The notes: a model not told the origin generated them from the sequence alone. 64,000 nt of DNA from Paenibacillus phytohabitans (GCF_013141775.1 NZ_WHOB01000082.1:39922-103921), one strand, 5' to 3'. Positions 33,197 to 51,042 are shown, numbered from the stretch's first letter. Program-made: numbers and translations.

Positions 33197-33760
33197 TTAA
33201 GTTGCAGTTTTCATGTTACTGCGTAGAATTTTGAAATCTTCTAATATATTGGAGATTCTTAGAATCATATCTCTATTCATATCTTGTTCTGTAGGGTTAT
33301 TTGGTAAGTACAAGCCCCACTGCTGAAACTTGCCCTCTAATAGAACAAATCCGGATACATGAGCTCCAAAACCATTTATTCTTGCAGATTCAAGAGTTAA
33401 TCTGTCGTCATGAAATACATTCACCAGTAGATTCTCAGTCCCCATGAAAAATACCGGATACGTTATGTTACTGAAAAAATCTTTATATTCCTGCTTGGCT
33501 GCTTCAGCCAGATAATCCTTTGCAATGATTAAGCCATCATAATTTATATTATGATCTTCAATAATATCTTTGAGGCTTTTGGGTATGTAGCTTAGATTTC
33601 TAATGTTATCAAAAGGAACATCACCAACAACTGCAATTTCTAACTGGATTGAAGGGGGATTATAAAGCTCCTCCGTCTGAGGCTCATTTACAATTTTGAT
33701 GTCACAGCTTACAAACAACACGGATAACAATATAAGAAGTAATAACATTTTGTTTTTCAT
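33197..33760 (-). CDS. Putative lipoprotein, hypothetical.
   Basis: Signal peptide with lipobox 'LFVSC'. AT-rich. Confidence 0.5.
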   Translation of the reverse strand: MKNKMLLLLILLSVLFVSCDIKIVNEPQTEELYNPPSIQLEIAVVGDVPFDNIRNLSYIPKSLKDIIEDHNINYDGLIIAKDYLAEAAKQEYKDFFSNITYPVFFMGTENLLVNVFHDDRLTLESARINGFGAHVSGFVLLEGKFQQWGLYLPNNPTEQDMNRDMILRISNILEDFKILRSNMKTAT

Positions 33761-33882
33761 TAGTGAGTATCCTTTTTTGTTTTATTATAATGGTTACTTT
33801 ATATTTAAAAATATAGAAAAATAATCCTTTTTGCAAGTGGATAATTAACTCGTTTGAGCCTCGAATGATAGGAGGAAGGAAA

Positions 33883-34191
33883 ATGAATGAAATAACCTCT
33901 CATAATTGTAATCTGAATATTTGGGCTCATCTGCCTGATGAAGTATGGAATACAGTTGCTAATATTTATGAGCGTATGCCTGGTTGGAGAGGGTACATAG
34001 ATGGGATTCCACACTGGTTTGGGCAGGAAGATGAGGATGTTTATATTCAGGCATCCGTTGAGCCAAGTGGATTATCATTCTTTGCTCGAATGAATCAGAG
34101 TGATTGGGATTCTTGGATTGGAGCGTTTAAATCAGAAGCAACTAAAGTGTTAGGGTTTGAGGTGGGGGAGCCTGAGGATGGGTTTGTGTAG
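33883..34191 (+). CDS. Hypothetical small protein.
   Basis: ORF with GGAGGAAGG RBS. No recognisable motif. Confidence 0.4.
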   Translation: MNEITSHNCNLNIWAHLPDEVWNTVANIYERMPGWRGYIDGIPHWFGQEDEDVYIQASVEPSGLSFFARMNQSDWDSWIGAFKSEATKVLGFEVGEPEDGFV

Positions 34192-34246: not shown

Positions 34247-34819
34247 ATGAATATAAACCAAGCGATTAACGTTATAGATAAGGAATTATCTCAAACATTA
34301 AGTGACTACCAACACTGGTTTACTTTAAATCCCGAAGAACTATCCTTTAAACCTCAGACCGGATGGAGTATTGAACAAATATTAGAGCATGTAACACTAA
34401 CCAATCACTTTTTATTGATCCTAATAAGAAAAGGGACTCGGAAAGCAATAGAACTATCAACAAAGAAAGATTTAAATACAATAATAGAATCAAGCCAAAT
34501 TAATTTACAAGAGCTTGATGCGATAGCTATACATAAGTCTTTTGATTGGATCAGACCAGAACATATGGAGCCTAAAGGAGAAACAGAACTAGGACAAATA
34601 AGCGCATTACTAGATAATCAAATTAACGAATGTAAAGAGCTTTTGAAAGAGATGAGAAACGGTGAAGGAATACTTTATAAAACTACAATGACGGTAAATA
34701 GCTTAGGCAAGATTGATGTTTATCAATATATCTATTTTCTGTGCCAACATGCCAAACGCCACATTGTACAAATGCAAAAAGTAACGGATGAGTATAGCAA
34801 ATTAAGTGAGGCTGAGTAA
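34247..34819 (+). CDS. DinB/YfiT-like (DinB_2 superfamily) metal-dependent four-helix-bundle protein.
   Basis: His triad context 'EQILEHVTLTNHF' and C-terminal 'CQHAKRHIVQMQ'. Confidence 0.45.
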   Translation: MNINQAINVIDKELSQTLSDYQHWFTLNPEELSFKPQTGWSIEQILEHVTLTNHFLLILIRKGTRKAIELSTKKDLNTIIESSQINLQELDAIAIHKSFDWIRPEHMEPKGETELGQISALLDNQINECKELLKEMRNGEGILYKTTMTVNSLGKIDVYQYIYFLCQHAKRHIVQMQKVTDEYSKLSEAE

Positions 34820-35000
34820 TTCAGATTCATGGAATCAGCATTTGATTTGGTGAATTGAGTTAAGGACTTCTGATTATCAGGAGTCCTTTTCTGTGTAATT
34901 TTAGGAATTTCATGGATTTACATTGAGGATTGGGCTATCATTATTTTGTGCAGAGCAAGTGTTAGAGATTGAATTAGATCAACATGAAGAGGTGCTAGAA

Positions 35001-35330
35001 ATGGACGAACTAATCGAAAAAATCATCCAATTCCGCGACGACAGGGACTGGAAGCAATTCCACGATCCCAAAGATCTGGCGCTCTCTATCTCGCTAGAGT
35101 CTAGCGAACTGTTGGAACTCTTCCAATGGAAGAACAGCCAGCAAGCCATAGAGCAACATTACTCCGACATGCAGGACGAAATCGCTGATATTCTCATCTA
35201 CACGCTAACGCTCGTTCATGATTTGAATATCGACGTAAAGGAAGCTGTCCTTCAGAAAATAAACAAAAACGCGGAGAAATATCCGGTATCCAGTTCCAAG
35301 GGAAGTTCGCAAAAAAGTAAGCGGCAGTGA
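35001..35330 (+). CDS. MazG-like nucleotide pyrophosphohydrolase (small YpjD-type).
   Basis: 'ESSELLELFQW' and 'EIADILIYTLTLVHDLNIDV' MazG helices. GAAGAGGTG RBS. Confidence 0.65.
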   Translation: MDELIEKIIQFRDDRDWKQFHDPKDLALSISLESSELLELFQWKNSQQAIEQHYSDMQDEIADILIYTLTLVHDLNIDVKEAVLQKINKNAEKYPVSSSKGSSQKSKRQ

Positions 35331-35349
35331 ATGAATAGGGGAGAACTCC

Positions 35350-37242
35350 ATGATTATCTATGAATCGACCAAGCAGCAATTTATGAATGATGTGACCGAA
35401 GACAGCATTGCGGTAAAGATTCATAACCAGTACGTCCAAAAAGTCGGCAGAGTTTCCATGGGCGAAATCAACGCATGGAACAATTCCATGAACTACCTTT
35501 ATAAGGTATTAAACACATCAACCATTCCAGATGACGTAGGAATCGCGATTGAATATAAAATTCCAGCGACCTCGAGAAGAGTCGACTTCATGATTACGGG
35601 CTTGAATGAACAGGATCAATACTCTGTAGTTATCATTGAGCTTAAGCAATGGACAGAAGTTGAAACGGTTGAGGACGCGGATGGTCTTGTTAAAACCTAC
35701 TTTAATCGAACAAAGACTAGAACGCCGCATCCTTCTTTTCAAGCATGGTCTTACGCCAGGTTGATTAGCGAATATAACGAAACCGTGCAGAATGAAGCGG
35801 TCCAACTCTATCCTTGCGCTTATTTACATAACTATGTACAGACCGATAACGATCCTCTATTGCATCCTGTCTACAATCAATATCTGGAGGATGCTCCTGT
35901 CTTCTCTAAGGGAGATGCTCTAAAGTTAAGAGGGTTTATTTCGACTTTCATTAAAAAAACCGATAGAAGCAAGTCGCTTTACCTCATTGAACATGGCAAA
36001 ATTAAACCTTCTAAATCGCTGCAGGATTCACTCCTCAGTATGCTACAGGGAAATCAAGAATTCATTATGATAGACGATCAGAAGGTAGTATATGAAGAAG
36101 CATTAAGATTGGCTCAGCAAGCACAGTCGGGCAAGAAACAGGTCCTGATTGTCGAAGGCGGACCAGGGACAGGGAAGTCGGTTCTCGGAATTAATCTTTT
36201 GGTAGAGCTTACGGCAAGAGAACTAGTCTGCCAATATGTAACCAAGAATAGTGCGCCTCGTGCCGTGTACATGAAAAAGCTACAGCAAAACGTGAAGAAA
36301 TCGTTCATAGATAACTTATTTAAGGGATCAGGTGTGTACTATGAAGCATTGCCCGATGAATTCGGTTGCTTGATTGTTGACGAGGCGCATCGCTTAAATG
36401 AGAAGTCAGGCCTGTTCAAAAATAAAGGGATTAATCAGACGATGGAGATTATCCGCGCTGCCCGGTTTTCTGTATTTTTCATTGATGAATATCAGAAAAT
36501 CGCCATGCATGATGTGGGCAGCAAAGAGCAGATTAGACATTATGCCGAACAAATGGATGCGGATATTACTGAACTGACATTGGCTTCTCAATTCAGGTGT
36601 AATGGCTCCGACGGATATCTGGCATGGCTCGATGATGTGCTTGATATCCGTGAAACGGCAAATGCAGATGGGTTCGATTTCGACTATGATATCCGACTCT
36701 ATGATGACCCAAATGAATTACGGGATGAAATCTTCAGCAAGAATCAGATCAATAATAAGGCAAGAATGCTTGCCGGATACTGCTGGGATTGGAAGACGGA
36801 TGGCAAGAACAATCCTGGCGTTCATGACATTCAGCTAGATCAGTATCAATTCTTCATGAGCTGGAACCTTAACAATACGACGACCTGGGCGATCGACCCT
36901 GAATCCATCGAACAAGTGGGCTGCATACATACCTCACAGGGACTTGAATTTGACTATGTCGGAGTTATCATTGGCGAAGATATGCGTTACGAGAATAACC
37001 GTATCATCACCGACCCGTTCAAACGAGCGAAGACGGATAAGTCCCTTTCAGGCTTCAAGACCTTGTATAAGAAAGATAAGGACGAGGCGCTCCGAATGGC
37101 CGATCAAATTATACGAAACACCTACCGGACGTTAATGACCCGGGGAACGAAGGGGTGCTATATCTACTGTGTGGACCCTCATCTGAAGGCGTACTTGCAA
37201 AGGCGATTGGCTTTGCAAAGTTCGGCGGTAATTTCGGGATAA
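35350..37242 (+). CDS. DUF2075-family (Schlafen-like) ATPase with an N-terminal PD-(D/E)xK-like nuclease motif. Defense-island-associated.
   Basis: 'RRVDFMI...VVIIELKQW' (D...ELK), Walker A 'VEGGPGTGKSVLGINLL', Walker B 'LIVDEAHRL'. 630 aa. Confidence 0.55.
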   Translation: MIIYESTKQQFMNDVTEDSIAVKIHNQYVQKVGRVSMGEINAWNNSMNYLYKVLNTSTIPDDVGIAIEYKIPATSRRVDFMITGLNEQDQYSVVIIELKQWTEVETVEDADGLVKTYFNRTKTRTPHPSFQAWSYARLISEYNETVQNEAVQLYPCAYLHNYVQTDNDPLLHPVYNQYLEDAPVFSKGDALKLRGFISTFIKKTDRSKSLYLIEHGKIKPSKSLQDSLLSMLQGNQEFIMIDDQKVVYEEALRLAQQAQSGKKQVLIVEGGPGTGKSVLGINLLVELTARELVCQYVTKNSAPRAVYMKKLQQNVKKSFIDNLFKGSGVYYEALPDEFGCLIVDEAHRLNEKSGLFKNKGINQTMEIIRAARFSVFFIDEYQKIAMHDVGSKEQIRHYAEQMDADITELTLASQFRCNGSDGYLAWLDDVLDIRETANADGFDFDYDIRLYDDPNELRDEIFSKNQINNKARMLAGYCWDWKTDGKNNPGVHDIQLDQYQFFMSWNLNNTTTWAIDPESIEQVGCIHTSQGLEFDYVGVIIGEDMRYENNRIITDPFKRAKTDKSLSGFKTLYKKDKDEALRMADQIIRNTYRTLMTRGTKGCYIYCVDPHLKAYLQRRLALQSSAVISG

Positions 37243-37841: not shown

Positions 37842-40800
37842 ATGGATAATGAATTCTTTAAAAGGCCTATACTCAATTCGCCTTATGAATATCCCGCAAG
37901 ATATTGGGAGTTAGATGAACAGGGTCAGCCTACGCATCAAATTATTAAAAATAGAAGGCCTGCTGAGTTTATCACACCGATTCCGAAACCTAGAAAAAGG
38001 AAAGAATCAGTCGAACAAATACAGATAGTATTTGATGAAGGCAGGGGGCTTTCAAATGAGGAACAACAGTACGATCCGACTTCAATTATCAATGCCATAA
38101 GGCGCCATGTGGATCACTGGAGAAACCTTCCGAATCCTGCTGATTGGCACGTCACTCCGGAAACCGCTCGCTTGCTCCAACATTGGCGTAATCATAAGTT
38201 CAGCAATACGCGCCCATTTTTTTGTCAGGTTGAGGCGGTTGAAACAGCCATTTGGTTAATAGAGGTAGCTCCAAAGATAGGTAAAACGGGGAAAGATTTT
38301 CTCGACCATCTTGTTAATGCTAGTAATGATGCGAATCCAGAACTGATAAGGCTTGCTCTTAAACTCGCAACTGGTGCAGGTAAGACGACTGTTATGGCAA
38401 TGGTCATAGCTTGGCAAACAATTAATGCAGTTCGTCGACCTACAAGCAACAACTTTACGCGTGCCTTCTTAATTGTTGCGCCTGGATTAACCATTCGTGA
38501 TCGGCTTAGGGTTCTTCAACCTAACGATCCTGATAGCTACTATAAAAGCCGGGAACTTGTCCCTAATGATATGCTTGGAATTTTGGATCGCACCAAGATT
38601 GTAATTACTAACTACCATGCGTTCAAGCTGCGCGAGCGGGTAGAACTTTCGAAGAGTGGTCGCGCACTTCTTCAGGGAAGAGGTGATGAACTCAATACCT
38701 TAGAATCTGAAGGGCAAATGCTCCAACGTGTACTACCGGAACTTATGGGTATGAAAAATATCATGATCATTAACGATGAAGCGCATCACTGCTATCGCGA
38801 GAAAAGGAGTTCAGATTCCGAAACGGAGATGACTCCGGATGAGAAGAAAGAGGCTGAGCTAAATAACGAGGCTGCTCGGTTATGGATTTCGGGTCTCGAA
38901 ACAGTTAATAGGAAAATCGGCATTAGACGAGTCATTGATTTATCAGCAACGCCGTTTTTCCTTAGTGGGTCGGGATATGCCGAGGGAACGCTGTTCCCTT
39001 GGACTGTGAGTGATTTTTCTCTAATGGACGCAATCGAGTGCGGTATAGTAAAACTCCCTCGTGTTCCCGTGGCTGACAATATCCCAGGAGGGGAGATGCC
39101 AAAATTTCGTAACCTTTGGGAGCATATTCGTGCTCGAATGCCGAAGAAGGGTCGAGGCAAAGCAAATTCACTCGATCCACTCAGCTTACCGGTTGAATTG
39201 TTAACCGCTTTAGACGCATTGTACGGTCACTACGAAAAAACCTTTGAGCTGTGGAAAGCTAGTGGTATTAAAGTGCCTCCGTGTTTTATTGTTGTTTGCA
39301 ATAATACTTCAACTTCTAAATTGGTCTATGATTATATATCTGGTTTTCAGCGTTTACATGATGATGGGTCTACAACTCTTGAGAATGGACGTTTAAAGCT
39401 TTTTCGTAATTTCGATGACATGGGAACCCCAATTGCACGTCCACGTACTCTTTTGATCGATAGCGAACAACTGGAATCTGGCAATGCATTAGACAAAGAC
39501 TTTCGGAATATGGCTGATGATGAAATACAACGTTTTCGTAGAGAAATTATAGAACGAACTGGTGATCGCCGACGGGCTGAGGCGCTCTCCGATCAAGAAT
39601 TGCTTCGCGAGGTCATGAATACAGTAGGTAGAGAAGGTCGCCTTGGCGAGTCAATCCGGTGCGTTGTATCAGTATCCATGCTTACAGAAGGGTGGGACGC
39701 TAACACGGTGACACATGTGTTAGGCGTTCGCGCTTTCAGCACTCAGCTTTTATGTGAGCAAGTTATCGGCCGTGCTTTGCGTCGACAATCATACGAATTA
39801 AATGAAGAAGGTCGTTTTAATGTGGAGTATGCGGATGTACTGGGAATACCGTTTGATTTTACAGCTAAGCCAGTTATTGCACCTCCACAGCCTCCTCGGG
39901 AAACAATTCATGTTAAAGCTGTTCGTCCTGAGCGTGATCATCTTGAGATAAAATTTCCACGGGTAGAAGGCTATCGAGTGGAACTTCCTGAAGAACGACT
40001 TTCTGCCATATTCGATACAGATTCCATTCTGGAACTAACTCCAGATATTGTTGGTCCTTCAATCACGAAAAACGCAGGGATTATAGGTGAAGACGTTGAC
40101 TTGAGTTTAGGACACTTAAAAGATATACGTGACTCGACACTACTTTTTAATATTACTAAACGTTTGCTCTACACGAAGTGGCGGGATAGTGGAGAAGATC
40201 CTAAACTTCATCTTTTTGGACAGCTCAAGAAGATAACTACGCAATGGCTTGACACTTGCTTGCTCTGCAGAGGGGGAACTTACCCAGCGCTGTTAATGTA
40301 CCAAGAATTGGCGGATATGGCCTGTAATCGTATTACTGCTGGCATTACCCGATCCTTGATAGGTGACAGGCCTGTCAAGGTTGTGCTTGACGCCTATAAC
40401 CCTAGTGGATCTACGAAGTATGTAAGTTTCAATACGTCGAAAGTAACACGTTGGGAAACAGATGTTAGGAAAAGTCACGTAAACTGGGTGATATTGGACA
40501 GCGACTGGGAAGCTGAATTTTGCCGTGTTGCCGAGTCACATCCATTGGTAAAGTCATATGTCAAAAACCATAATCTTGGGATGATGGTTCCGTACCGTTA
40601 TGGTTCTGAGCAAAGGAAGTACATTCCTGACTTTATTGTTCTCGTTGATGATGGACGTGGAGATGAAGATTTGCTACATTTGGTAATTGAAATAAAAGGG
40701 TATAGGCGTGAGGATGCTAAAGAAAAGAAAACTACAATGGATACCTACTGGATTCCTGGAGTTAATAACCTTGGCCGATATGGTCGTTGGTCTTTCGCTG

Positions 40801-40898
40801 AATTTACACAGGTTTACGAGATCGAATCTGATTTTGAGGCAAGATTACGGTCCGAATTCAATGAAATGATTATTTCAGCTACAACTCGAACGATGTAA
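37842..40898 (+). CDS. Type III restriction enzyme Res subunit-like SF2 helicase/endonuclease.
   Basis: Motif I 'LATGAGKTTVMAMV', motif II 'IINDEAHH', C-terminal PD-(D/E)xK 'IPDFIV...LVIEIKGY'. 1018 aa. Confidence 0.75.
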   Translation: MDNEFFKRPILNSPYEYPARYWELDEQGQPTHQIIKNRRPAEFITPIPKPRKRKESVEQIQIVFDEGRGLSNEEQQYDPTSIINAIRRHVDHWRNLPNPADWHVTPETARLLQHWRNHKFSNTRPFFCQVEAVETAIWLIEVAPKIGKTGKDFLDHLVNASNDANPELIRLALKLATGAGKTTVMAMVIAWQTINAVRRPTSNNFTRAFLIVAPGLTIRDRLRVLQPNDPDSYYKSRELVPNDMLGILDRTKIVITNYHAFKLRERVELSKSGRALLQGRGDELNTLESEGQMLQRVLPELMGMKNIMIINDEAHHCYREKRSSDSETEMTPDEKKEAELNNEAARLWISGLETVNRKIGIRRVIDLSATPFFLSGSGYAEGTLFPWTVSDFSLMDAIECGIVKLPRVPVADNIPGGEMPKFRNLWEHIRARMPKKGRGKANSLDPLSLPVELLTALDALYGHYEKTFELWKASGIKVPPCFIVVCNNTSTSKLVYDYISGFQRLHDDGSTTLENGRLKLFRNFDDMGTPIARPRTLLIDSEQLESGNALDKDFRNMADDEIQRFRREIIERTGDRRRAEALSDQELLREVMNTVGREGRLGESIRCVVSVSMLTEGWDANTVTHVLGVRAFSTQLLCEQVIGRALRRQSYELNEEGRFNVEYADVLGIPFDFTAKPVIAPPQPPRETIHVKAVRPERDHLEIKFPRVEGYRVELPEERLSAIFDTDSILELTPDIVGPSITKNAGIIGEDVDLSLGHLKDIRDSTLLFNITKRLLYTKWRDSGEDPKLHLFGQLKKITTQWLDTCLLCRGGTYPALLMYQELADMACNRITAGITRSLIGDRPVKVVLDAYNPSGSTKYVSFNTSKVTRWETDVRKSHVNWVILDSDWEAEFCRVAESHPLVKSYVKNHNLGMMVPYRYGSEQRKYIPDFIVLVDDGRGDEDLLHLVIEIKGYRREDAKEKKTTMDTYWIPGVNNLGRYGRWSFAEFTQVYEIESDFEARLRSEFNEMIISATTRTM

Positions 40899-40912
40899 AG
40901 GAGAAGTATTAA

Positions 40913-43708
40913 TTGGACGAATATACAACAAGGAGAACGGTTGAAATTCTTAGACACGATGAGGCAACCCGCAAGAATATTCCTACGGTGGAATACCATT
41001 CTGTCATGTCTAAGGAAGAGCAAGAGACTATTCGAGTTTCCTATAATCGTCGGAATGTTGATCTTGATCCACAATTGGTTTGGCGTGGGAAAGACGATCA
41101 GGATTGGTCCGATCTGGTGGTTCAAACACCGCCTCTTTATATTCAGGAGAAGGTTCATCCCAAATTCTTGATCGATGATCTGCAGCGTCGTTCCGATAAT
41201 GAGGAGAAATTGGACGACCTCCAGCTTGATTTATTTGACGATTTTAATGGTTTGCTAAATGAAAATGCAAAAACTGAGTTTTATCAGCATAATGCCAACT
41301 GGACAAATCGAATGATACTCGGTGACAGTCTTCAAGTCATGGCCTCACTTGCAGAACGTGAGGGCTTGCGCGGCAATGTGCAATGTATCTATATTGATCC
41401 GCCTTATGGTATAAAGTTTAATTCAAACTTCCAGTGGTCGACTGCGAACCGAGATGTAAAAGATGGAAACACAGGTCACATCACTCGCGAACCAGAGCAA
41501 GTTAAGGCTTTTCGAGATACTTGGCGAGATGGGATTCATTCTTACTTGACTTATTTAAGGGACAGACTAACTGCTGCACGAGATTTGTTGAGTGATACTG
41601 GTTGTGTTGTTCTTCAAATCGGAGATGAAAACGTCCATCGGGCTAGGGTGCTTCTTGACGAAGTTTTTGGTGATAGTAATTTTGTCTGTCTCATTACTGT
41701 AAAGAAGACACATCACCAAGAATCCAACTACGTTCCGTCAGTGTCTGACTATTTGGTCGTGTATGCTAAGTCTAAGACTCAACTTAAGTATCGTCCTATT
41801 CGCCCTAAAAAGGCGTTGGACGGAATAGATTTCTCAAAATTTAACAAGACGCTAGACTCAGAACTACGTGTGAACTCGATTCCAAAGGAATGGAAGGAAA
41901 ATCCGGAGTTAATTCCAGAAGATCGCGTACCAATTCGAACAGACATTACTTTAACGCAGGATGGGGATTCTCAGAACTCGCAGGTGCCTTGGAATGTCTT
42001 TTCCAAAGAATACTATCCAGGTAAAGGGCGGCACTGGAGAACACATGAGGAAGGACGGCGGCGTCTAGAATATGCTGGCCGAGTTTCCAAAGGTACTACT
42101 AGACCATTCTATATCGAACCGTGGAACGATAAACCGGCTGCACCAAACAACAACATCTGGACCAAGAATCTTGCAGGTGCACAGCATAAGGTTTATGTTG
42201 TTCAGACAAACGTAAGGATTGTTGAACAAATACTCTTGATGTTTAGCGATCCAGGTGATCTCATACTTGATCCTACATGCGGCTCTGGAACTACTGCATA
42301 CGTTGCGGAGCAGTGGGGACGTCGTTGGATTACGATTGACACTTCACGAGTAGCCCTTGCTTTAGCGCGCGCAAGGGTAATGGGAGCAACATACCCGTAT
42401 TATTATTTGGCCGACAGTAGGGATGGTCAAATTAAAGAGGCTGAGTTAACTCGCACCGCACTTTCTGAAGGACAGACACACAATGACATACGTCATGGTT
42501 TTGTCTATGATCGAGTACCGCATATCACGTTAAAATCGATTGCCAACAATTCAGAGATTGATGTTATTTGGGAGAGATTTGACGATATTCTTGAACCAAT
42601 TCGGAAAGCCTTAAATCGAGAAACTGGGAATGAGTTTAAAGAATGGGAGATTACACGAGAGGCTGACGAGAAATGGTCAGTAGGTGCGAAGGAACTGCAT
42701 GCTGAGTGGTGGAATCACCGTATCGCCCGGCAAAAAGAAATAGACGCATCTATTGCAGCAAAGGCTGAATTCGAATATCTCTATGATAAACCGTTTGAAG
42801 ATAATAAGAAAATTCGTGTTGCAGGGCCATTTACCGTAGAGAGTCTGTTGCCGCACCGTGTTCTAGCGGTGGATGAGAATGACGAGTTGATTGATTTCAT
42901 TGTAGAATCAAAGGAAAGTTATGATGAGGTGCAGGATTTCATAATGATGATTCTTGAAAATCTGAGGACTGCGGGCGTGCAACAGGCCAATAAAGAAGAC
43001 AAAATTAATTTCTCCTCTGTTACGCCTTGGCCTGGAGATTTAATATGTGCTGAAGGACGTTTTGCCGATGAATCTGGGGATTCGGTTATTGAAAAGCGTG
43101 CTGCAATCTTTGTTGGGCCTGAATTTGGAACTGTTTCGAGACCTGATCTTGTTGCCGCTGCACGTGAGGCAGGTGACGCAGGCTTTGATATACTCATTGC
43201 CTGTGCTTTTAATTATGATGCTCATTCTTCAGAGTTTCATAAGATTGGACGTTTACCGGTACTTAAAGCACGTATGAACGCAGATTTGCATATGGCCAAT
43301 GATCTCAAGAATAATGGAAAAGGCAATTTATTTGTAATTTTTGGCGAGCCAGATATAGACCTCGTATATAGCGGGGATGATAAAGTTCAGGTAAAGATTA
43401 ACGGAGTTGATGTCTTCCATCCAAGCACAGGTGAGGTACGTAGCGACGGGGCTGACGGGATTGCTTGTTGGTTTATCGATACTGATTATAATGAGGAAAG
43501 TTTTTTTGTACGCCATGCCTATTTCTTGGGGGCCGATGATCCCTATAAGGCTCTCAAAAATACACTCAAGGCTGAAATTGACATAGAATCATGGGAAACA
43601 TTAAACAGTGATATATCGCGAACTTTTATTAAACCTAAAAGTGGACGCATAGCCGTCAAGGTTATCAACCATCTTGGGGATGAAGTGATGAAAGTCTTTC
43701 GTTTATAG
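40913..43708 (+). CDS. Beta-class N6-adenine/N4-cytosine DNA methyltransferase (Type III Mod-like) with a long C-terminal extension. TTG start.
   Basis: Motif IV 'IYIDPPYGI' precedes motif I 'ILDPTCGSGTTAYVA'. AAAGGAGA RBS sits 8 nt before TTG. 931 aa. Confidence 0.75.
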   Translation: MDEYTTRRTVEILRHDEATRKNIPTVEYHSVMSKEEQETIRVSYNRRNVDLDPQLVWRGKDDQDWSDLVVQTPPLYIQEKVHPKFLIDDLQRRSDNEEKLDDLQLDLFDDFNGLLNENAKTEFYQHNANWTNRMILGDSLQVMASLAEREGLRGNVQCIYIDPPYGIKFNSNFQWSTANRDVKDGNTGHITREPEQVKAFRDTWRDGIHSYLTYLRDRLTAARDLLSDTGCVVLQIGDENVHRARVLLDEVFGDSNFVCLITVKKTHHQESNYVPSVSDYLVVYAKSKTQLKYRPIRPKKALDGIDFSKFNKTLDSELRVNSIPKEWKENPELIPEDRVPIRTDITLTQDGDSQNSQVPWNVFSKEYYPGKGRHWRTHEEGRRRLEYAGRVSKGTTRPFYIEPWNDKPAAPNNNIWTKNLAGAQHKVYVVQTNVRIVEQILLMFSDPGDLILDPTCGSGTTAYVAEQWGRRWITIDTSRVALALARARVMGATYPYYYLADSRDGQIKEAELTRTALSEGQTHNDIRHGFVYDRVPHITLKSIANNSEIDVIWERFDDILEPIRKALNRETGNEFKEWEITREADEKWSVGAKELHAEWWNHRIARQKEIDASIAAKAEFEYLYDKPFEDNKKIRVAGPFTVESLLPHRVLAVDENDELIDFIVESKESYDEVQDFIMMILENLRTAGVQQANKEDKINFSSVTPWPGDLICAEGRFADESGDSVIEKRAAIFVGPEFGTVSRPDLVAAAREAGDAGFDILIACAFNYDAHSSEFHKIGRLPVLKARMNADLHMANDLKNNGKGNLFVIFGEPDIDLVYSGDDKVQVKINGVDVFHPSTGEVRSDGADGIACWFIDTDYNEESFFVRHAYFLGADDPYKALKNTLKAEIDIESWETLNSDISRTFIKPKSGRIAVKVINHLGDEVMKVFRL

Positions 43709-45214
43709 CAAATGATTCAAATGTGGGCAACATTAAGGACAAAAACATTCTAACCTTTAAGTTAATAATCTATGTAGAGTGAACTTAAAAATCTAACTTG
43801 CTGTATGGACGAAATCCTGGGTAGCAAGGAAGGCGTCTATCAGCTGGCCATCATTCTTAAGTTCTTCTTAATATAGTAGGGACTCATAAACTTAAATTAC
43901 TGGCCTAAGCGAATAGACGAAATACTAAGATACTGCAATTCATATGAGCGCCTTTTGGTGGGTGTGGTGGAATGGAAAAAAGACCGAATCAATATTAAAT
44001 TATTACCAAAGACCAAGCGTTAAAGGAAACATATGAAGTTTTAAGAAATAAACACATCCCAGAAGGGTGAAAAAAGATTTTCACAATTTAATAATGGTGA
44101 AAACTACCAAACAAAGTTTTCCTGGAAATTATTAGGAAATAAGTGTTGGTCACAAGGTGCTCTACTCAGTACATTGATAGTAGTAAAAAAGGATTGCATC
44201 ACGAGCTCGTAACCACAAAAAACTTAATTTATAAGAATCATTTGCCGATTCATTTTTTGGAGGTGGATTTAGAGGAACCTGAGTATTGGTTGGATGTGTG
44301 TATTCGCTTGCATGATTACTGATGAAGAGAATAAACTGTATTTGGGTGGGAAACTAACAACAAACATTAATGGTTTATGAGAAAATGGGCGAGTTACCTT
44401 AAGGCAGGTCTTACAGACATTTGGATTGTTAAATGGGAGGAAAGAACCTCAATTCAAACATAAAAAAAGACCTGATTTACGGAAAAAATTATATAAATTT
44501 ATAATTCATGATACCTCCTTAAAAGCGTGATCCATACGCTACAGCGAAACGAGGATTTGAACTTTCACGGTTCGCCGCTTTAGACCACATACAACTATAG
44601 AAGGATGCCCAATCGGGTATCCTTTATTTCGCTTTATAGAATCGTATCATAAATAGTAGTTAAGTAGAGTGGAGAATAATTATTATTTTTTTATTTTTAA
44701 TTATGATTTCACTTTCATTCCCCCAACACCTCCCCAACAGAAACCTCCAACGCTCTCGCAATAGCAACCACCTCATAATCCTGCATAAGTCTATATTGAC
44801 CTTCCAATCGCTATAAACTGGTTGGGCTACTTTCTAAGCCGAAGGTTTGTAACCTGGCGAGAAAATCCTTTTGCTTCATTCGCTTAGCTTTTTGAATGGA
44901 CCACTCGGGTTCTGATGATATTTTTGTCACCTGGTGGTTCTGGGCAATGCTTCATTTCGAAGTCGCCTCACAATATTTTATTTTATTTCGATATTCGCAT
45001 TAAAATAATACTTACCTCGCATACAATTGGATTAATACGCACTGAAATTTCTATATATCGTCTATAGACATACCCTTCCAGAAAGGAGGGAGTGTAATTC
45101 AACAACTAATGCACAAATACGAGGAGGAAAAGCGCAAGTTGAATGAACTCGGGCAGTGGTCACTGGAGCAGGGTATTTCGTTAAGCGGCAATGTAGCAAG
45201 CCCAGAGTCGTAGA

Positions 45215-45733: not shown

Positions 45734-46423
45734 ATGTTTAAAGCACTGTTGTCTCTCTTCAAAAAGTCAGACGCTAAACCGTCACTGGCTGTGCGTAAGG
45801 CACCAACTCCAAAGTCGAAGCCGAAGGTAGCCCCCACACGAATTGGAGAGTTAGGCGAGCATAAAATCAATATCCAACTTGACCAACTACCCAAGGAGTG
45901 TAAACCGTTAAGCGATCTGTTGCTCCCTAATTCTAGGTCACGAACAGGTTACACCCAGGTAGATCATGTTGTTATTTCTCCATATTGCTTATTTGTCATC
46001 GAGACGAAAAACTACAATGGGTAAATTAAGGGTGGACGGACGGATCAGCAATGGTCAGTGAGCAATCGTTATAAGATGTATAATCCGCTGAAGCAGAACT
46101 ACGGGCATATCAGGGCCATTGAGAGTCTGATAAAAGGTGTAGCAGTAGTGAAGTTTGTCTCTATGATCTCATTCACAATGAGATGTCGGTTTAGTATTGA
46201 TCCTGAGCTTCGGAAGATTCATTCGGACGAGCTGGTTGTCTATGATGTGGAACTAAGTGAGTTTATCTCTAGGAAGCTGATTAGTTTGAAGAATGGAACT
46301 CCTGAGCCTCCCATTTCTGTGGCGCAGGCCCAGACCATATACGATCATTTAGTTCAGGCTAATATCACCGATCCCGAGATTCGTAAGCTTCATATACAGA
46401 GAATAAAGGGGAATAAGGTGTAG
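45734..46423 (+). pseudogene. NERD-domain nuclease-related gene interrupted by an in-frame TAA at 46022-46024.
   Basis: 'QVDHVVISPYCLFVIETKNYNG' then TAA then 'IKGGRTDQQWSV...YNPLKQNYGH' in the same reading frame. This is the NERD pattern hVvis..gifviEtKn..G.i.G......W. Confidence 0.6.
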
Positions 46424-46466: not shown

Positions 46467-48656
46467 ATGATCAAACAACTACGAAGCTGGTGGAAGGATA
46501 CAGAGATATCTAACTTAATCGGCCGCAAAAAAGTGGACTTTTCCATCTTTCGTGATGGTACGCATATTCCCGTTGAGTTTCATCCGGATTTCCTGGAAGC
46601 GAATCAAGGTCAACAGCCTAACCTGGGTGAAGGAATAAAGGTTAAGCTCTTCTATGAAGATCGAGACTATGAAGCCACGCTATTTAAAATTGATCAAGCA
46701 TCCGCTAGTCGGGAAGCTCTTCAACTTCGCTATAACGGAAATCAGACGTTGAAGGAGTTGTTAATTGAAGTCTTCAAGCATTCCTATTCCTACATTATGC
46801 AAGAGAGAACGAATCAACTAGCAGATGATGCGAAGCGACCTCAGGTTGTTGTTCCTGAAGATCAAGCCGAATACATAGATTTCTTTGCGACAGGAGTTCC
46901 TTTCGAATACCGTTTAGAGTTCATAACGTATCAGCCGAAGCCTAATGTATGGTGGGTGAATCAGGGAACCACCATTCAAGCGGAGAAGGAAGCGGGGATT
47001 CTGTGGGCACCTCTACTGAATACTCAAGGCCGTAAGCTATATCACTGGGAGACGATGAAGGAGGTTAAACAAGGAGATATCATCCTTCATTACTCCAATA
47101 AGGCTATTCGTTATGTTAGCCAGGTTACAGATGCGGCAGTAGAAGCACCGAAACCAGGCTCTATGGCTAATACGGGTTGGCAAGAGGAAGGAAGCCTGGT
47201 TCGCACCAATTACGTAGAACTCATTCCGTTCATTGCGTTACAACAGTTCAATCAGCAAATTATGCAACTGAATATCACCCAAGGACCGCTCCATACTGGA
47301 GGCGGAGTGAATCAAGGGTATTTGTTCCGCTTTTCAAGACAAGGGCTTCAAGTGCTTCAGTCACTCACGACAGAAGTGAATTGGCCTAATTTTACTATTC
47401 TAGAGCAAGATGAGGTTGCCTCCAGTATGGAGAGCTTGCGTGAGGTGATTCCTATTCTACCACCATCCGATTCTAGCATTACAGCTTTTCTCCACCAAAT
47501 CCAATCCCACATCCGCCGCCAAGGCTTCTTTTTCCCAGAGCACCTGATCGAGAACTTCTACCTCTCGCTGAAGGCGAAGCCGTTTGTCATTCTGGCGGGG
47601 ATATCGGGGACGGGGAAGACACGCCTGGTGAAGCTGTTTGCGGAGGCGCTGGGGGCGACGCGGGATAATGAACAGTATACCTTGATTCCGGTGCGGCCGG
47701 ATTGGAGTGATCCTGCGGATCTGCTGGGGTATAAGGATCTGTCGGGCAGGTTCCAGCCGGGTCCGATGACGAAGGTGTTCGTGGAGGCGCGGCAGCCAGA
47801 GAATCGGCATAAGCCTTATTTTATCTGCCTGGATGAGATGAATTTGGCCCGGGTGGAGCATTATTTCAGTGATCTGTTAAGTGTGCTGGAAACGCAGGAG
47901 TGGCGGGACAGTGAGATTCAGACGCAGGAGCTTATCTCTCGTGCCTTGCTGGGTACACCTGAGGATCGAGAGATATATGGCGGCCTGGGCATCCCGGAGA
48001 ATGTGTTCCTGATCGGGACGGTGAATATGGATGAGACTACGCATCCTTTTAGCAAAAAAGTTCTGGACCGTGCAAGCACCCTGGAGTTCAATTACATCAA
48101 TCTGCAGCAGTATCCGCAAGGGGCTGAGCAGGACGCGGGTGATCCCGCTGATCTTAATGAGCTGAATCATCTCTTCCTCCGTTCCGATTATTTGCAGCTG
48201 GTGGATGCCTATGATACTCATCAGGAGCTCGTTGTGCGGACAACGGAGAGACTGGTTCAGATTAATACGCTGCTGGAGGATATCCATGCTCATGTGGGCT
48301 TCCGGGTGCGGGATGCGGTTTGCTTCTATATGATCTATAACGAGCGCTATGGTCTGATGGTTGAGGAAGAGGCGTTTGACTGGCAACTGCTGCAAAAGAT
48401 TCTGCCGCGTATCCAGGGAAGTCATTCCTCCGTGCGCCGGGTGCTGCTTAATCTGATGAAGGTTGCGATAGGTAGCAGTGCCGGCATTACGGTTAATGTT
48501 CGAGAACTCATGGACGATGATGCTTCGCCACTCTATCTGAGATGGGCTGCCGGGCAGAATCCGCCTGGGGTCAAGCATCCGCAAAGTGCCCGTAAATTGG
48601 CTTATATGCTTAGGAGGCTGGAGGAAGATGGATTCACCTCATACTGGCTCTCTTAA
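46467..48656 (+). CDS. McrB-like AAA+ GTPase (Type IV restriction) with a ~330-aa N-terminal putative DNA/modified-base-binding domain.
   Basis: 'FVILAGISGTGKTRL' (Walker A), 'FICLDEMNLARVEHYF' (Walker B/NxxR region), 'FLIGTVNMDE..LDRAST'. 729 aa. Confidence 0.8.
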   Translation: MIKQLRSWWKDTEISNLIGRKKVDFSIFRDGTHIPVEFHPDFLEANQGQQPNLGEGIKVKLFYEDRDYEATLFKIDQASASREALQLRYNGNQTLKELLIEVFKHSYSYIMQERTNQLADDAKRPQVVVPEDQAEYIDFFATGVPFEYRLEFITYQPKPNVWWVNQGTTIQAEKEAGILWAPLLNTQGRKLYHWETMKEVKQGDIILHYSNKAIRYVSQVTDAAVEAPKPGSMANTGWQEEGSLVRTNYVELIPFIALQQFNQQIMQLNITQGPLHTGGGVNQGYLFRFSRQGLQVLQSLTTEVNWPNFTILEQDEVASSMESLREVIPILPPSDSSITAFLHQIQSHIRRQGFFFPEHLIENFYLSLKAKPFVILAGISGTGKTRLVKLFAEALGATRDNEQYTLIPVRPDWSDPADLLGYKDLSGRFQPGPMTKVFVEARQPENRHKPYFICLDEMNLARVEHYFSDLLSVLETQEWRDSEIQTQELISRALLGTPEDREIYGGLGIPENVFLIGTVNMDETTHPFSKKVLDRASTLEFNYINLQQYPQGAEQDAGDPADLNELNHLFLRSDYLQLVDAYDTHQELVVRTTERLVQINTLLEDIHAHVGFRVRDAVCFYMIYNERYGLMVEEEAFDWQLLQKILPRIQGSHSSVRRVLLNLMKVAIGSSAGITVNVRELMDDDASPLYLRWAAGQNPPGVKHPQSARKLAYMLRRLEEDGFTSYWLS

Positions 48657-51042
48657 TCAGGCGGTGGAATTGCTCCGTATCGAGACGGAGCTTTTTACGC
48701 TATATGTGCAGGGGCGGCCCTATCATCCTACGGTGGAGACGTTGCAGCTTCATCGCTCCCCGCAGCAGGAGTGGGTGAATGCTCAGCTTGGAATTACCTG
48801 CTCGCAACGGCTTGGGGAAGTGCAGATTAAGGTGTTCTCGCCTGAAGCCTATGGGCTGGTAGACTGGCAGCCGGGAGAGTCGTCCTTTCCTTGCTTTTAT
48901 GAGACGCAGCCGTATGAACTGGTGATTCAGAACAAGACAACGGATAACCTAACTTTTTACCATGAAAATGTGCTGCTACGGCAGGCGGTTAAGCCGCTGG
49001 GTGAGTCTATCCTTGCAGGTGTGCTGAACTTTGGGAATGAGGTTGGGCTGACGGAATGGGAAGTTCGTAGTAATGGACAGACCTTGTTGCGGGTGGAGAT
49101 GGAGATTTTCCCCTCAAAGCTGGATTATAAGCTGGATTACCAGAACCTTCTGCATGAGGTGAATGCACAGATCTATAATTTGGCCTTTGATTTTCTGCGC
49201 CGGACCTACCAGCTAACTGGCCTTAAGGAGACGCAGCATCAGAGCCTGACGGAGTTCTTCGCCATCCTACAGCATGTATTCAGACAGCTCTTGGATGCCG
49301 TTGAGCGGATCAACAAGAATCCTAATGTTGCACTGCTCCAGGAACGCCGATTAATGGATGCAGGCCGGGTCAAAAAAGCCGGAAGAGAGAACATTCGCGA
49401 GCTCGCGAAGCATCCTGAACGGTTAAGAGAAGACATGGACCATGGCTTCTTAACGATCGGCAACCGGACCTACACAGCATCGCACTTAATAGAGACACGG
49501 AAGCGCCTTGCCTATGATACAAGTGAGAACCGGTTCATCCGCTGGATGCTGGAACGTATTCACGGGAAGCTGAAGGAGCTTAAAAGCCGCTGGAAAGAGA
49601 ACAGCCGAACCTCAGATTCGCTACTCATCCGAAGAATCGACACATTGCTCACTCAGCTAGAGCGGGTACTTAAGATTGATTTCCTGCGGGAGGCTGGAGC
49701 ACTGAAGCAGATGTCCGTTACGCTGGTGCTGCAGATGGCCCCCGGATACCGGGAGGTCTATCGCTGTTATCTCATGCTGCTCAAAGGCCTGTCGATCCAA
49801 GGCGACTTGCTTCGCCTATCCATGAAGGATGTCGCGCAGCTCTATGAATACTGGTGCTTCCTTAAGCTGAATCAGCTTCTGGGGCAGAAGTATAAGCTAG
49901 TGAAGCAGGATATTATTAAGGTGAACCGGAATGGGATCTTTGTGACGCTGGATCGCTCGCAGAGCGCTCAGATGGTCTATGAGAATCCGCTCAACGGGGA
50001 ACAGTTCATCCTGTACTACAATGCGATTCCTGGAACAGACAGGACCCCGACGCTCAGTCAACGTCCTGACAATGTGCTTACCTTGAAGAAGAAGGATGCG
50101 GGTCAGATCAAGGAGTATAAGTATGTGTTCGATGCGAAGTATCGGTTGAATCCGGCGTATGAGGGGACTTCCTATCAGCAGAAATATAGACAGCCTGGAC
50201 CGGAAGAGGATGATATTAATACGATGCACCGCTACCGGGACGCGATAGTCTATCAGGAGACAGGTTCCGGGGAATACGAGCGAAGCATGTTCGGGGCGTA
50301 TGTGTTATTTCCGTATCCTGATGAGGAGCGGTACAAGACCCACCGTTTCTACAAAAGCATCGGGCTGCTGAACATTGGCGCCTTGCCGTTCCTGCCGAAT
50401 TCTACAAGCCTGGTGGAGCAATTCTTAGCTGAGATTATTCAGGATAGTCCGGAAAAAGCTTACGAACGCTCGACACGTCCGCGCGGCACGAAGGAATACT
50501 ACGTCAATCAGCTTGCGGGCAAAAATGTGCTGGTCGGATCTGTCCGGGGGCCGGAGCAGGTGGCGGTGGCGGTGCGGAAAGCTTTTTATCATATGCCGCT
50601 TAAGAATCTTGCCAGCCAGAAGCTCCTAACCCAGATCGAATACATTGCTATGTGCCAATCTCGAAAGAAGTTCATTGATCCCGCCAAAACAGGCATTCAC
50701 TGGGTAGGGAAGGTAGCGGATTGGAAGGTGCTGCGGCGTAAGGAGATTCAGGAAATCCCTTGTCGGCCGGGTACCGAGGAGGAGCTGTATGTACGCTTCA
50801 CGATTGAGGAATGGAAGAACATAGCCGTTCCTATTACGCTGGGGGGCCAAGGGATCTACACAGTGCTCTATACCAGTAAGTATATCCTGGACCGGGCTTT
50901 GGAGATTGCCGAGCTCCGTCTAGAAACAGAGGAAGCGCTGCGGGAATGGCGGGAGAAGCGTCGCAAGGGCCGGGTGAAGGTAAAGCTGGATCATGAGGAG
51001 TATGTGGATTTGGGTAGGGTTGTGGAGGTTAGGAATATATAG
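48628..51042 (+). CDS. McrC-like PD-(D/E)xK nuclease partner with a long N-terminal extension, possibly DUF2357-type.
   Basis: Overlaps the McrB 3' end by 29 nt. 'PDNVLT...YKYVFDAKYR' D..D-A-K nuclease motif. 804 aa from ATG 48628. Confidence 0.65.
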   Translation: MDSPHTGSLNQAVELLRIETELFTLYVQGRPYHPTVETLQLHRSPQQEWVNAQLGITCSQRLGEVQIKVFSPEAYGLVDWQPGESSFPCFYETQPYELVIQNKTTDNLTFYHENVLLRQAVKPLGESILAGVLNFGNEVGLTEWEVRSNGQTLLRVEMEIFPSKLDYKLDYQNLLHEVNAQIYNLAFDFLRRTYQLTGLKETQHQSLTEFFAILQHVFRQLLDAVERINKNPNVALLQERRLMDAGRVKKAGRENIRELAKHPERLREDMDHGFLTIGNRTYTASHLIETRKRLAYDTSENRFIRWMLERIHGKLKELKSRWKENSRTSDSLLIRRIDTLLTQLERVLKIDFLREAGALKQMSVTLVLQMAPGYREVYRCYLMLLKGLSIQGDLLRLSMKDVAQLYEYWCFLKLNQLLGQKYKLVKQDIIKVNRNGIFVTLDRSQSAQMVYENPLNGEQFILYYNAIPGTDRTPTLSQRPDNVLTLKKKDAGQIKEYKYVFDAKYRLNPAYEGTSYQQKYRQPGPEEDDINTMHRYRDAIVYQETGSGEYERSMFGAYVLFPYPDEERYKTHRFYKSIGLLNIGALPFLPNSTSLVEQFLAEIIQDSPEKAYERSTRPRGTKEYYVNQLAGKNVLVGSVRGPEQVAVAVRKAFYHMPLKNLASQKLLTQIEYIAMCQSRKKFIDPAKTGIHWVGKVADWKVLRRKEIQEIPCRPGTEEELYVRFTIEEWKNIAVPITLGGQGIYTVLYTSKYILDRALEIAELRLETEEALREWREKRRKGRVKVKLDHEEYVDLGRVVEVRNI

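Follow-up and report, generated by a model that had tools for sequence, protein, structure and literature searches.

A MazG-like and DUF2075 nuclease-helicase gene pair in a defence island of Paenibacillus phytohabitans and its possible link to modified nucleotides

The window analysed here, a 64,000-nucleotide (nt) stretch of the Paenibacillus phytohabitans genome, contains a block of genes at 34247-37242 that raises the question of which of these genes belong together and what they do. A first-pass annotation had described the block as DinB-like, MazG-like and DUF2075 genes and proposed that they form an uncharacterised defence module. The three co-oriented open reading frames (ORFs) are present where it had placed them (Table 1), with the last one spanning 35350-37242 (630 amino acids, aa) and the middle one beginning at 34923 or 35001, depending on the start codon. 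The mechanically called MazG ORF starts with TTG at 34923. However, its homologues all begin at ATG 35001, a codon preceded by a GAGGTG ribosome-binding site, and this was taken as the true start. The intergenic gaps then amount to 181 nt (DinB_2-MazG) and 19 nt (MazG-DUF2075), matching the 182 and 19 noted before. All three domain assignments were confirmed by Pfam, with DinB_2 on the 190-aa protein (1.2e-9, 39.1 bits versus a cut-off of 24.8), MazG-like PF12643 on the second (2.4e-17, 63.4 bits versus 27) and PF09848 on the third (4.5e-102, aa 263-609). PF09848 is named SLFN-g3_helicase in Pfam and is the same family as the DUF2075 of the first-pass annotation and the cited papers. The three genes share a low-GC island (GC 0.36-0.45 versus 0.50-0.55 in the flanks).

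Two of the three genes belong together: the MazG-like and the DUF2075 gene are a co-conserved, horizontally mobile pair found across bacterial phyla and archaea. This was determined from 80 genome loci whose DUF2075 protein is 52-75 % identical to that of the window, covering Bacillota, Bacteroidota, Gammaproteobacteria, Saccharibacteria, Methanobrevibacter and a Woesearchaeote. Neighbouring genes were sought in these loci by tblastn with the window proteins and, for the MazG-like gene, also with an iterated hidden Markov model (HMM). Both searches returned a MazG-like gene in the same 50 loci, and it lies within 1 kb of DUF2075 in 48 of the 80. The most frequent arrangement places it directly upstream on the same strand (34/80), either with a gap of 1-100 nt (22 loci) or with a 4-bp overlap (12 loci). 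It was also found 100-900 bp upstream in six loci, in four of which an inserted gene was identified, more than 1 kb upstream in two, downstream of DUF2075 but still linked in seven, and on the opposite strand in one. Under a simple random-placement model with one MazG-like gene per genome, the chance of at least 47 such genes within 1 kb is P ~1e-124. No other neighbour family occurs in more than 8 of the 80 loci. In addition, the pairwise identities of the MazG and DUF2075 proteins correlate across loci (r = 0.55), a value reached in none of 2000 Mantel permutations.

The reverse test, starting from the MazG-like side, points in the same direction. Of the 80 closest metagenomic MazG-like genes, 36 adjoin a gene of the DUF2075 family, and many of the contigs without DUF2075 are too short to decide. 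Many of the DUF2075 partners found in this way share no more than 25-39 % identity with the window protein. The neighbourhood statistics proposed with the first-pass annotation hence bear out the MazG and DUF2075 part of the suggested gene block.

The partnership is not obligatory. A MazG-like gene is absent from 30 of the 80 loci, and no second conserved partner was found in these 30, whose neighbours are heterogeneous; MazG is therefore not essential to its DUF2075 partner. A neighbour-joining tree of DUF2075 shows MazG linkage across almost every deep clade and at least 13 changes of state; the linkage is lacking chiefly from a Bacillaceae clade and from a Clostridia subclade. This distribution fits an ancestral MazG partner, and we infer that it was present in the ancestor of the DUF2075 ortholog group and was lost repeatedly, the nuclease-helicase being able to persist alone. 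Distant DUF2075 homologues on plasmids are also paired with a nucleoside triphosphate (NTP) pyrophosphatase. The gene order is pyrophosphatase, HNH, DUF2075 on pBMB400 of Bacillus thuringiensis, and NUDIX, MrcB_N protein, MazG-like, DUF2075 on a Priestia plasmid. The same MazG type occurs with very different DUF2075 N-termini. Overall, the DUF2075 gene was found on 94 plasmid records versus only 4 of 50,697 phage records, and a phage origin of the gene was rejected because of the latter count.

Other arrangements were seen as well. In Turicibacter sanguinis (loci L081/L082, 7382-7960), a T5orf172/MUG113 (GIY-YIG-like) gene replaces MazG directly upstream of DUF2075, and the protein cluster of this gene is found on 65 contigs. 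In an Oxalobacter genome (L037, 5717-9863), two DUF2075 paralogues with about 620 aa apiece lie in tandem after the MazG-like gene.

The DinB_2 gene, the third member of the suggested block, is not part of this pair. It adjoins DUF2075 in none of the 80 loci (tblastn), and a strong terminator-like hairpin separates it from the MazG-like gene. The closest relative of the cassette, locus L083 of another Paenibacillus genome, encodes a DUF2075 protein that is 91 % identical to that of the window at the amino acid level. At the DNA level, homology between the two is confined to 34879-37217 (84.7 % nucleotide identity), with unrelated flanks on both sides. The homologous block comprises the promoter, MazG and DUF2075, and its left edge at 34879 falls inside the terminator hairpin. 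In L083, DinB is present only as a C-terminal fragment about 4 kb upstream, and the downstream neighbours are a helix-turn-helix gene and DUF4007 with BrxC/PglY. Because of the terminator, the missing adjacency and the start of the L083 homology after DinB, the DinB gene was rejected as a module member and is regarded as an unrelated neighbour. The functional unit is very likely the MazG-like and DUF2075 genes without it. With a size of 2.3 kb, this cassette is transferred as one piece among loci that are otherwise unrelated. It also carries its own promoter region as predicted by consensus, and the promoter candidate lies inside the block conserved with L083. A search for direct or inverted repeats flanking the cassette, as marks of a mobile element, gave short chance-level matches only.

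The DUF2075 protein combines a predicted nuclease with a predicted and complete SF1 helicase. The motifs highlighted in the first-pass annotation are real and invariant in 44 orthologues, namely D79 (RVDFMI) and E97-L98-K99 (IIELK) in the N-terminal part and, in the helicase, the Walker A motif GGPGTGKS (G270-S277) and the Walker B motif D344-E345-A346-H347. E68 is invariant as well. The stretches GCIHTSQGLEFD and RTLMTRG are read here as further helicase-like conserved segments. A structure model of the N-terminal 260 residues (pLDDT 85.9, pTM 0.85) places E68, D79 and E97-x-K99 on three consecutive beta strands after a long helix, an arrangement that we read as a PD-(D/E)xK core. The best matches of this fold are restriction endonucleases, in agreement with the PD-(D/E)xK-type domain that had been suggested from the motifs. 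Foldseek, run with the full-length model (pLDDT 82.7), gave human SLFN11 as the best match (1.5e-9), followed by RecD2, nsp13, IGHMBP2, Dna2, Dda, Upf1 and UvrD. A Schlafen core (AlbA_2-type) RNase domain was not detected by Pfam. A PDB sequence search with the DUF2075 profile gave no match at E <= 0.001, so the protein has no solved close relative, and an exact-sequence look-up did not find the window protein on record. The strong conservation of the N-terminal domain would suit a target of constant chemistry better than a phage protein that evolves quickly.

The MazG-like protein resembles enzymes that act on single nucleotides. Its PDB sequence matches include an archaeal pyrophosphatase (4qgp, 3e-22) and DCTPP1/RS21-C6 (2.5e-19), and it also matches a PHROG pyrophosphatase (1.2e-20). 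With these structures it shares the all-alpha MazG fold family and the metal ligands E33, E36, E39, E60 and D63 (ExxE...ExxD), which do not vary among 16 partners and reach at least 90 % conservation in a set of about 50. When the PDB alignment was transferred onto the pocket of human DCTPP1 (PMC13291643), eight of its nine base-pocket residues were matched, by W17, F20, H21, W43, I66, Y67, Y94 and F11. W17 and W43 correspond to the Trp sandwich and H21 is the equivalent of His51. All of these residues except F20 and I66 are invariant in the 16 partners, and the equivalents of DCTPP1 W47, W73, F50, H51, I101, Y102 and Y129 are conserved. From these residues, the protein is almost certainly active on a substrate resembling a deoxynucleoside triphosphate (dNTP). 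Pfam shows no regulatory domain in the 109 aa. Unlike DCTPP1, the window enzyme is operon-linked to a nuclease-helicase.

The pair sits in a defence island in the window and among defence genes elsewhere too. Downstream in the window and on the same strand are a restriction-modification (R-M) pair, an McrBC-like pair and the type II Mokosh gene MkoC. A PADLOC scan of the neighbours in loci L001-L029, which yielded family counts with no control set and was used qualitatively only, gave matches to a type IV restriction enzyme, PbeA, a type I restriction enzyme, BrxC, Mokosh, DrmD, SoFic and Hhe. This context supports the earlier proposal of a defence module, and a defence or anti-mobile-element function of the cassette is considered rather probable.

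Several observations bring base-modified DNA into this picture. A PLD-SF2 helicase-DUF3427 protein (PADLOC mREase_IV) is encoded within about 1.7 kb of DUF2075 in 8 of the 80 loci. The regions in question are 1352-4888 in L009, 10396-13765 in L014 and 939-4192 in L065, and the protein was also seen in L012, L033 and L069. A MutT-type NUDIX gene occurs in four loci. In L009, L014 and L065 it lies beside the DUF3427 enzyme, whereas L024 lacks this type of enzyme and has the NUDIX gene on the opposite strand. The three loci with both genes could represent a second pairing of a restriction enzyme with a dNTP sanitiser. Further hints are the MrcB_N protein in the Priestia MazG-DUF2075 cluster, a DUF3883/NOV_C protein that adjoins a Streptomyces DUF2075, and a close MazG-like homologue without DUF2075 that lies beside a GmrSD type IV enzyme (L117, 484-2573). 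DUF2075 has also been noted next to the McaZI group of modification-dependent enzymes (Lutz 2019). Phages escape the related Nhi-like protein by losing their DNA methylase, and Nhi-like is apparently sensitised by methylation of phage DNA. Base-modified DNA was considered as a theme because of these neighbours and reports together with the likeness of the MazG-like protein to DCTPP1, which clears methylated or C5-modified dCTP and thereby averts misincorporation (PMC13291643).

These findings are best explained by a defence cassette with a link to modified nucleotides, and this explanation, taken as a whole, is assigned a probability of roughly 0.45. The catalytic motifs of the predicted nuclease, SF1 ATPase and MazG pyrophosphatase are all intact. 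In the proposed mechanism, the nuclease-helicase would be the effector, loading on and degrading invading DNA as Nhi does, and its target would most likely be DNA with base modifications or replication-type structures. The MazG partner would act as an accessory and hydrolyse non-canonical dNTPs, probably C5-modified pyrimidine dNTPs. This could serve defence in two ways. In the first version, phages building hypermodified DNA would be starved of their special dNTPs, so that the nuclease-helicase and the neighbouring R-M systems could attack their DNA. In the second version, MazG would block the re-incorporation by the host of modified nucleotides from degraded phage DNA, without which the host chromosome would become a target of its own nuclease. 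The modified-nucleotide mechanism by itself is put forward tentatively, and it is somewhat more doubtful still that pool sanitation is an integral part of a restriction-like defence, be it for starvation or for self-immunity.

If MazG does act on modified dNTPs, dNTP-pool sanitation would be linked to the restriction of modified DNA, and the cassette would possess a self-versus-non-self safeguard of a kind so far undescribed in type IV-like systems. The MutT-type NUDIX genes beside type IV-like enzymes would then be a second instance of the same principle. The lineage is very widespread in bacteria and archaea. Its relatives Nhi, Nhi-like and AbiO are validated anti-phage proteins, and the helicase is common to human antiviral Schlafens. 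A DCTPP1-like enzyme is found in none of the validated members.

The comparison with known systems shows that the architecture itself is not new. Nhi of Staphylococcus epidermidis (SERP2475, Bari 2022) and Nhi-like of Bacillus cereus FSL H8-0482 (Millman 2022) are, like the window protein, single polypeptides with a PD-(D/E)xK domain and a DUF2075/SF1 helicase. AbiO of Lactococcus likewise joins a PD-(D/E)xK N-terminus to an SF1B helicase resembling SLFN group 3. However, Nhi and Nhi-like act as single genes and AbiO is a single gene without a described MazG partner, and a dedicated DCTPP1-like partner is thus what sets the window lineage apart. Human SLFN11 and the group III Schlafens belong to the same Pfam family and, like the window family, are antiviral or restriction-associated, but their Schlafen core RNase is not in the window protein. 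The DUF2075 protein is classed by sequence as a separate lineage and a distant relative of Nhi, Nhi-like and AbiO. As for type IV enzymes, the PLD-helicase-DUF3427, MrcB_N, GmrSD and McaZI groups are recurrent neighbours of DUF2075, of the MazG-like gene or of both, which is an association only. No PUA/EVE/SRA-type reader is recognisable in the window protein, such domains being confined to neighbours of DUF2075 in related loci, and the nearest type IV-like genes of the window, the McrBC-like ones, are about 9 kb away.

The pair itself has been listed before. Table S2 of Millman et al. 2022 (bioRxiv 10.1101/2022.05.11.491447) contains a candidate named 'Pyrophosphatase', which consists of a pyrophosphatase and a DUF2075 protein. 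The candidate is unvalidated and without a proposed mechanism. Two instances are given there. SG192 from Bacillus firmus LK28 (pyrophosphatase of 98 aa, DUF2075 of 643 aa) is marked 'observed defense = x', meaning that no defence was seen, and for SG193 from B. thuringiensis Lr3/2 (DUF2075 of 619 aa, pyrophosphatase of 108 aa) 'cloning failed' is reported. The assay used native promoters, E. coli and B. subtilis as hosts and 26 phages. SG192 shares both genes and their order with the window cassette, which is a copy in Paenibacillus and in a different island. The window MazG is 54 % identical to the SG192 pyrophosphatase over its full length, and the window DUF2075 is also 54 % identical to that of SG192 over aa 1-399, the stretch given in the supplement. 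In SG193 a distant DUF2075 is paired with the pyrophosphatase. Literature searches on DUF2075/MazG, Schlafen/MazG and MazG-like/anti-phage topics found no validated MazG-DUF2075 system and no paper discussing the pair, and the DefensePredictor paper mentions the MazG domain only generically as predicted defensive. The statement of the first-pass annotation that no validated system combines the two thus still holds. The pair had, however, already been catalogued as a candidate.

A number of points weigh against a defence cassette linked to modified nucleotides. The most direct one is the SG192 result, the only published test of a relative, which showed no defence and is exactly what explanations without defence predict. 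The first-pass annotation had named two findings that would speak against it, a lack of co-conservation elsewhere and the absence of a phage phenotype. The MazG-like and DUF2075 genes turned out to be co-conserved, and the absence of a phenotype was seen once, in this homologue. The negative outcome may have arisen from the choice of phages or because a foreign native promoter drove expression. If MazG acts on modified dNTPs, this could also account for a negative test with a standard phage panel. The functional transfer from validated systems is weak, because the DUF2075 protein is only 23 % identical to the validated Nhi-like protein (E = 5e-6) and its PADLOC matches are weak and restricted to part of the helicase. 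They amount to 62.9 bits for PDC-S41, 45 bits for AbiO (1.6e-12, aa 235-418 only) and 39 bits for Nhi (aa 236-418 only). An identity of 52-75 % between members from different phyla is more than one usually finds in a defence gene. Scans with Pfam, PADLOC and NCBIfam detected no modified-base reader domain (PUA/EVE/SRA/DUF3427/MrcB_N) in the 630-aa protein, and the association with type IV-like enzymes was counted without a matched control. On the MazG side, the partner is missing from the 30 loci mentioned above, and the equivalent of His38 is Ile or another hydrophobic residue throughout the family. Since His38 and His51 are the proposed cytosine selectivity filters of human DCTPP1 (PMC13291643), this replacement leaves the substrate of the MazG-like protein unsettled. 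Some close MazG-like genes also occur in housekeeping contexts. Four of those without DUF2075 (L120, L114, L155 and L142) lie between an alpha/beta hydrolase and a PurU-like formyltransferase, a context that was checked with Pfam for L120 alone. Accordingly, not every member of the MazG subfamily is tied to defence. All in all, the observation made in the first-pass annotation is confirmed and its interpretation is partly supported.

These points give room to other explanations. One is a module for DNA repair and nucleotide-pool hygiene, in which MazG would remove damaged or non-canonical dNTPs and the nuclease-helicase would process lesions or stalled forks. It would account for the lack of defence in SG192 and for the very high sequence conservation. 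DCTPP1 and MutT-type enzymes are classical house-cleaning enzymes, NUDIX/MutT genes recur nearby, and some MazG-like relatives lie beside an abhydrolase, a PurU-like gene and a CCA-adding enzyme. DinB, as a member of a damage-inducible superfamily, could share the repair theme, but it is not linked to the cassette. The patchy distribution with clear horizontal transfer between phyla and domains, the occurrence of the pair on plasmids, the variable flanks rich in R-M, BREX-like, Mokosh and type IV enzymes, and the transfer of the 2.3-kb unit between unrelated loci make this explanation unlikely.

The same degree of doubt applies to a toxin-antitoxin-like or abortive-infection pair, in which the small, translationally coupled MazG would restrain an intrinsically toxic nuclease-helicase, as its binding partner or by breaking down a nucleotide that activates it, until infection relieves the restraint. 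A small upstream gene that often overlaps the larger one by 4 bp, the co-evolution of both proteins, the failure to clone SG193 and the toxicity at high copy of AbiO, which has the same architecture, would all be expected from such a pair. However, 30 of the 80 orthologues persist with no MazG next to them. MazG can also be located downstream of DUF2075 or be split from it by inserted genes, and DUF2075 partners with quite unlike N-termini are found with one type of MazG. Furthermore, the catalytic and substrate-pocket residues of MazG are all invariant, which indicates that it works as an enzyme with a dNTP-like substrate and is more than a binding partner.

Nucleotide-depletion immunity, which had been considered in the first-pass annotation, is less likely still. 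Here, MazG would drain canonical dNTPs, and the DUF2075 helicase would be the sensor or activator. Nucleotide-depleting defences such as dCTP deaminase and dGTPase are known, and DefensePredictor predicts a defensive role for MazG domains. In this case, however, the DUF2075 protein has its own invariant nuclease triad and hence appears effector-like, DCTPP1-type enzymes are pool sanitisers that prefer modified dCTP, and the MazG-like protein is without a regulatory domain and dispensable in 30 of the 80 loci. Finally, a three-gene DinB-MazG-DUF2075 operon, as the co-orientation, the short gaps and the shared low-GC island might suggest, is highly improbable in view of the terminator, the 0/80 adjacency and the L083 homology boundary.

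Table 1. Positions of the cassette, its regulatory signals and the upstream DinB_2 gene in the window.
Feature	Position	Strand	Basis or remark
DinB_2-family gene, 190 aa	34247..34819	+	Pfam DinB_2; neighbour outside the module
Intrinsic-terminator-like hairpin, 12-bp stem, 3-nt loop, T-run	34862..34888	+	closes the DinB transcription unit
Sigma-70-like promoter candidate, TTTACA-16-CATTAT	34917..34944	+	upstream of MazG; consensus match only
MazG-like / DCTPP1-type all-alpha NTP pyrophosphatase, 109 aa	35001..35330	+	PF12643, PDB matches
DUF2075 protein, predicted N-terminal restriction-endonuclease-like (PD-(D/E)xK) domain, aa 1-260	35350..36129	+	E68, D79, E97, K99
DUF2075 protein, predicted SF1 helicase domain (SLFN group 3 / DUF2075), aa 263-630	36136..37242	+	PF09848, Foldseek

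The two small upstream genes and the downstream Res and Mod genes were compared with the same 80 loci. At the left edge of the island lie two orphans, hyp187 (33197-33760, minus strand), which encodes a lipoprotein-like protein of 187 aa, and hyp108 (33865-34191, plus strand), which encodes 108 aa. Neither has a match in Pfam, NCBIfam, PADLOC or PHROGs. Both orphans and the downstream Res and Mod genes were rejected as conserved partners, as each was found in 0/80 loci save for one spurious Mod match. Scans of the window against Rfam and for tRNAs gave no RNA gene matches.

Downstream of the cassette, a type III-like R-M system begins 600 bp after the DUF2075 gene (37842-43708, plus strand). 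It consists of a BPTD_3080-family restriction endonuclease (NF046055, 1379 bits; ResIII and RE_endonuc) followed by a type III methyltransferase of 931 aa (PDLC03632), and the two look like a complete R-M pair. After the methyltransferase, a segment of about 1.5 kb (43709-45214, GC ~0.38) contains only ORFs of 59 and 50 aa and could represent decayed genes or the junction of separately acquired island segments. At 45734-46423 (plus strand), a NERD gene is split into ORFs of 96 and 121 aa, of which only the first matches Pfam NERD (5e-13); this is probably a disrupted defence-associated gene. The McrBC-like pair at 46467-51042 (plus strand) consists of two ORFs that, as listed, overlap by about 70 nt. 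The first encodes an AAA_5 ATPase whose N-terminal domain is long (PDC-M26A, 7e-55), the second a protein with DUF2357 and a PDDEXK_7 nuclease (PDC-M26B). The type II Mokosh gene MkoC (51256-54246, plus strand; PADLOC 3e-291) lies in a second low-GC patch (0.37-0.39). Further downstream, at 61851-63971 (plus strand), a coding region with a strong A-over-T skew contains a 234-bp tandem repeat in 9.1 copies with 83 % identity. It runs off the end of the window and probably belongs to a gene for a large repetitive surface protein.

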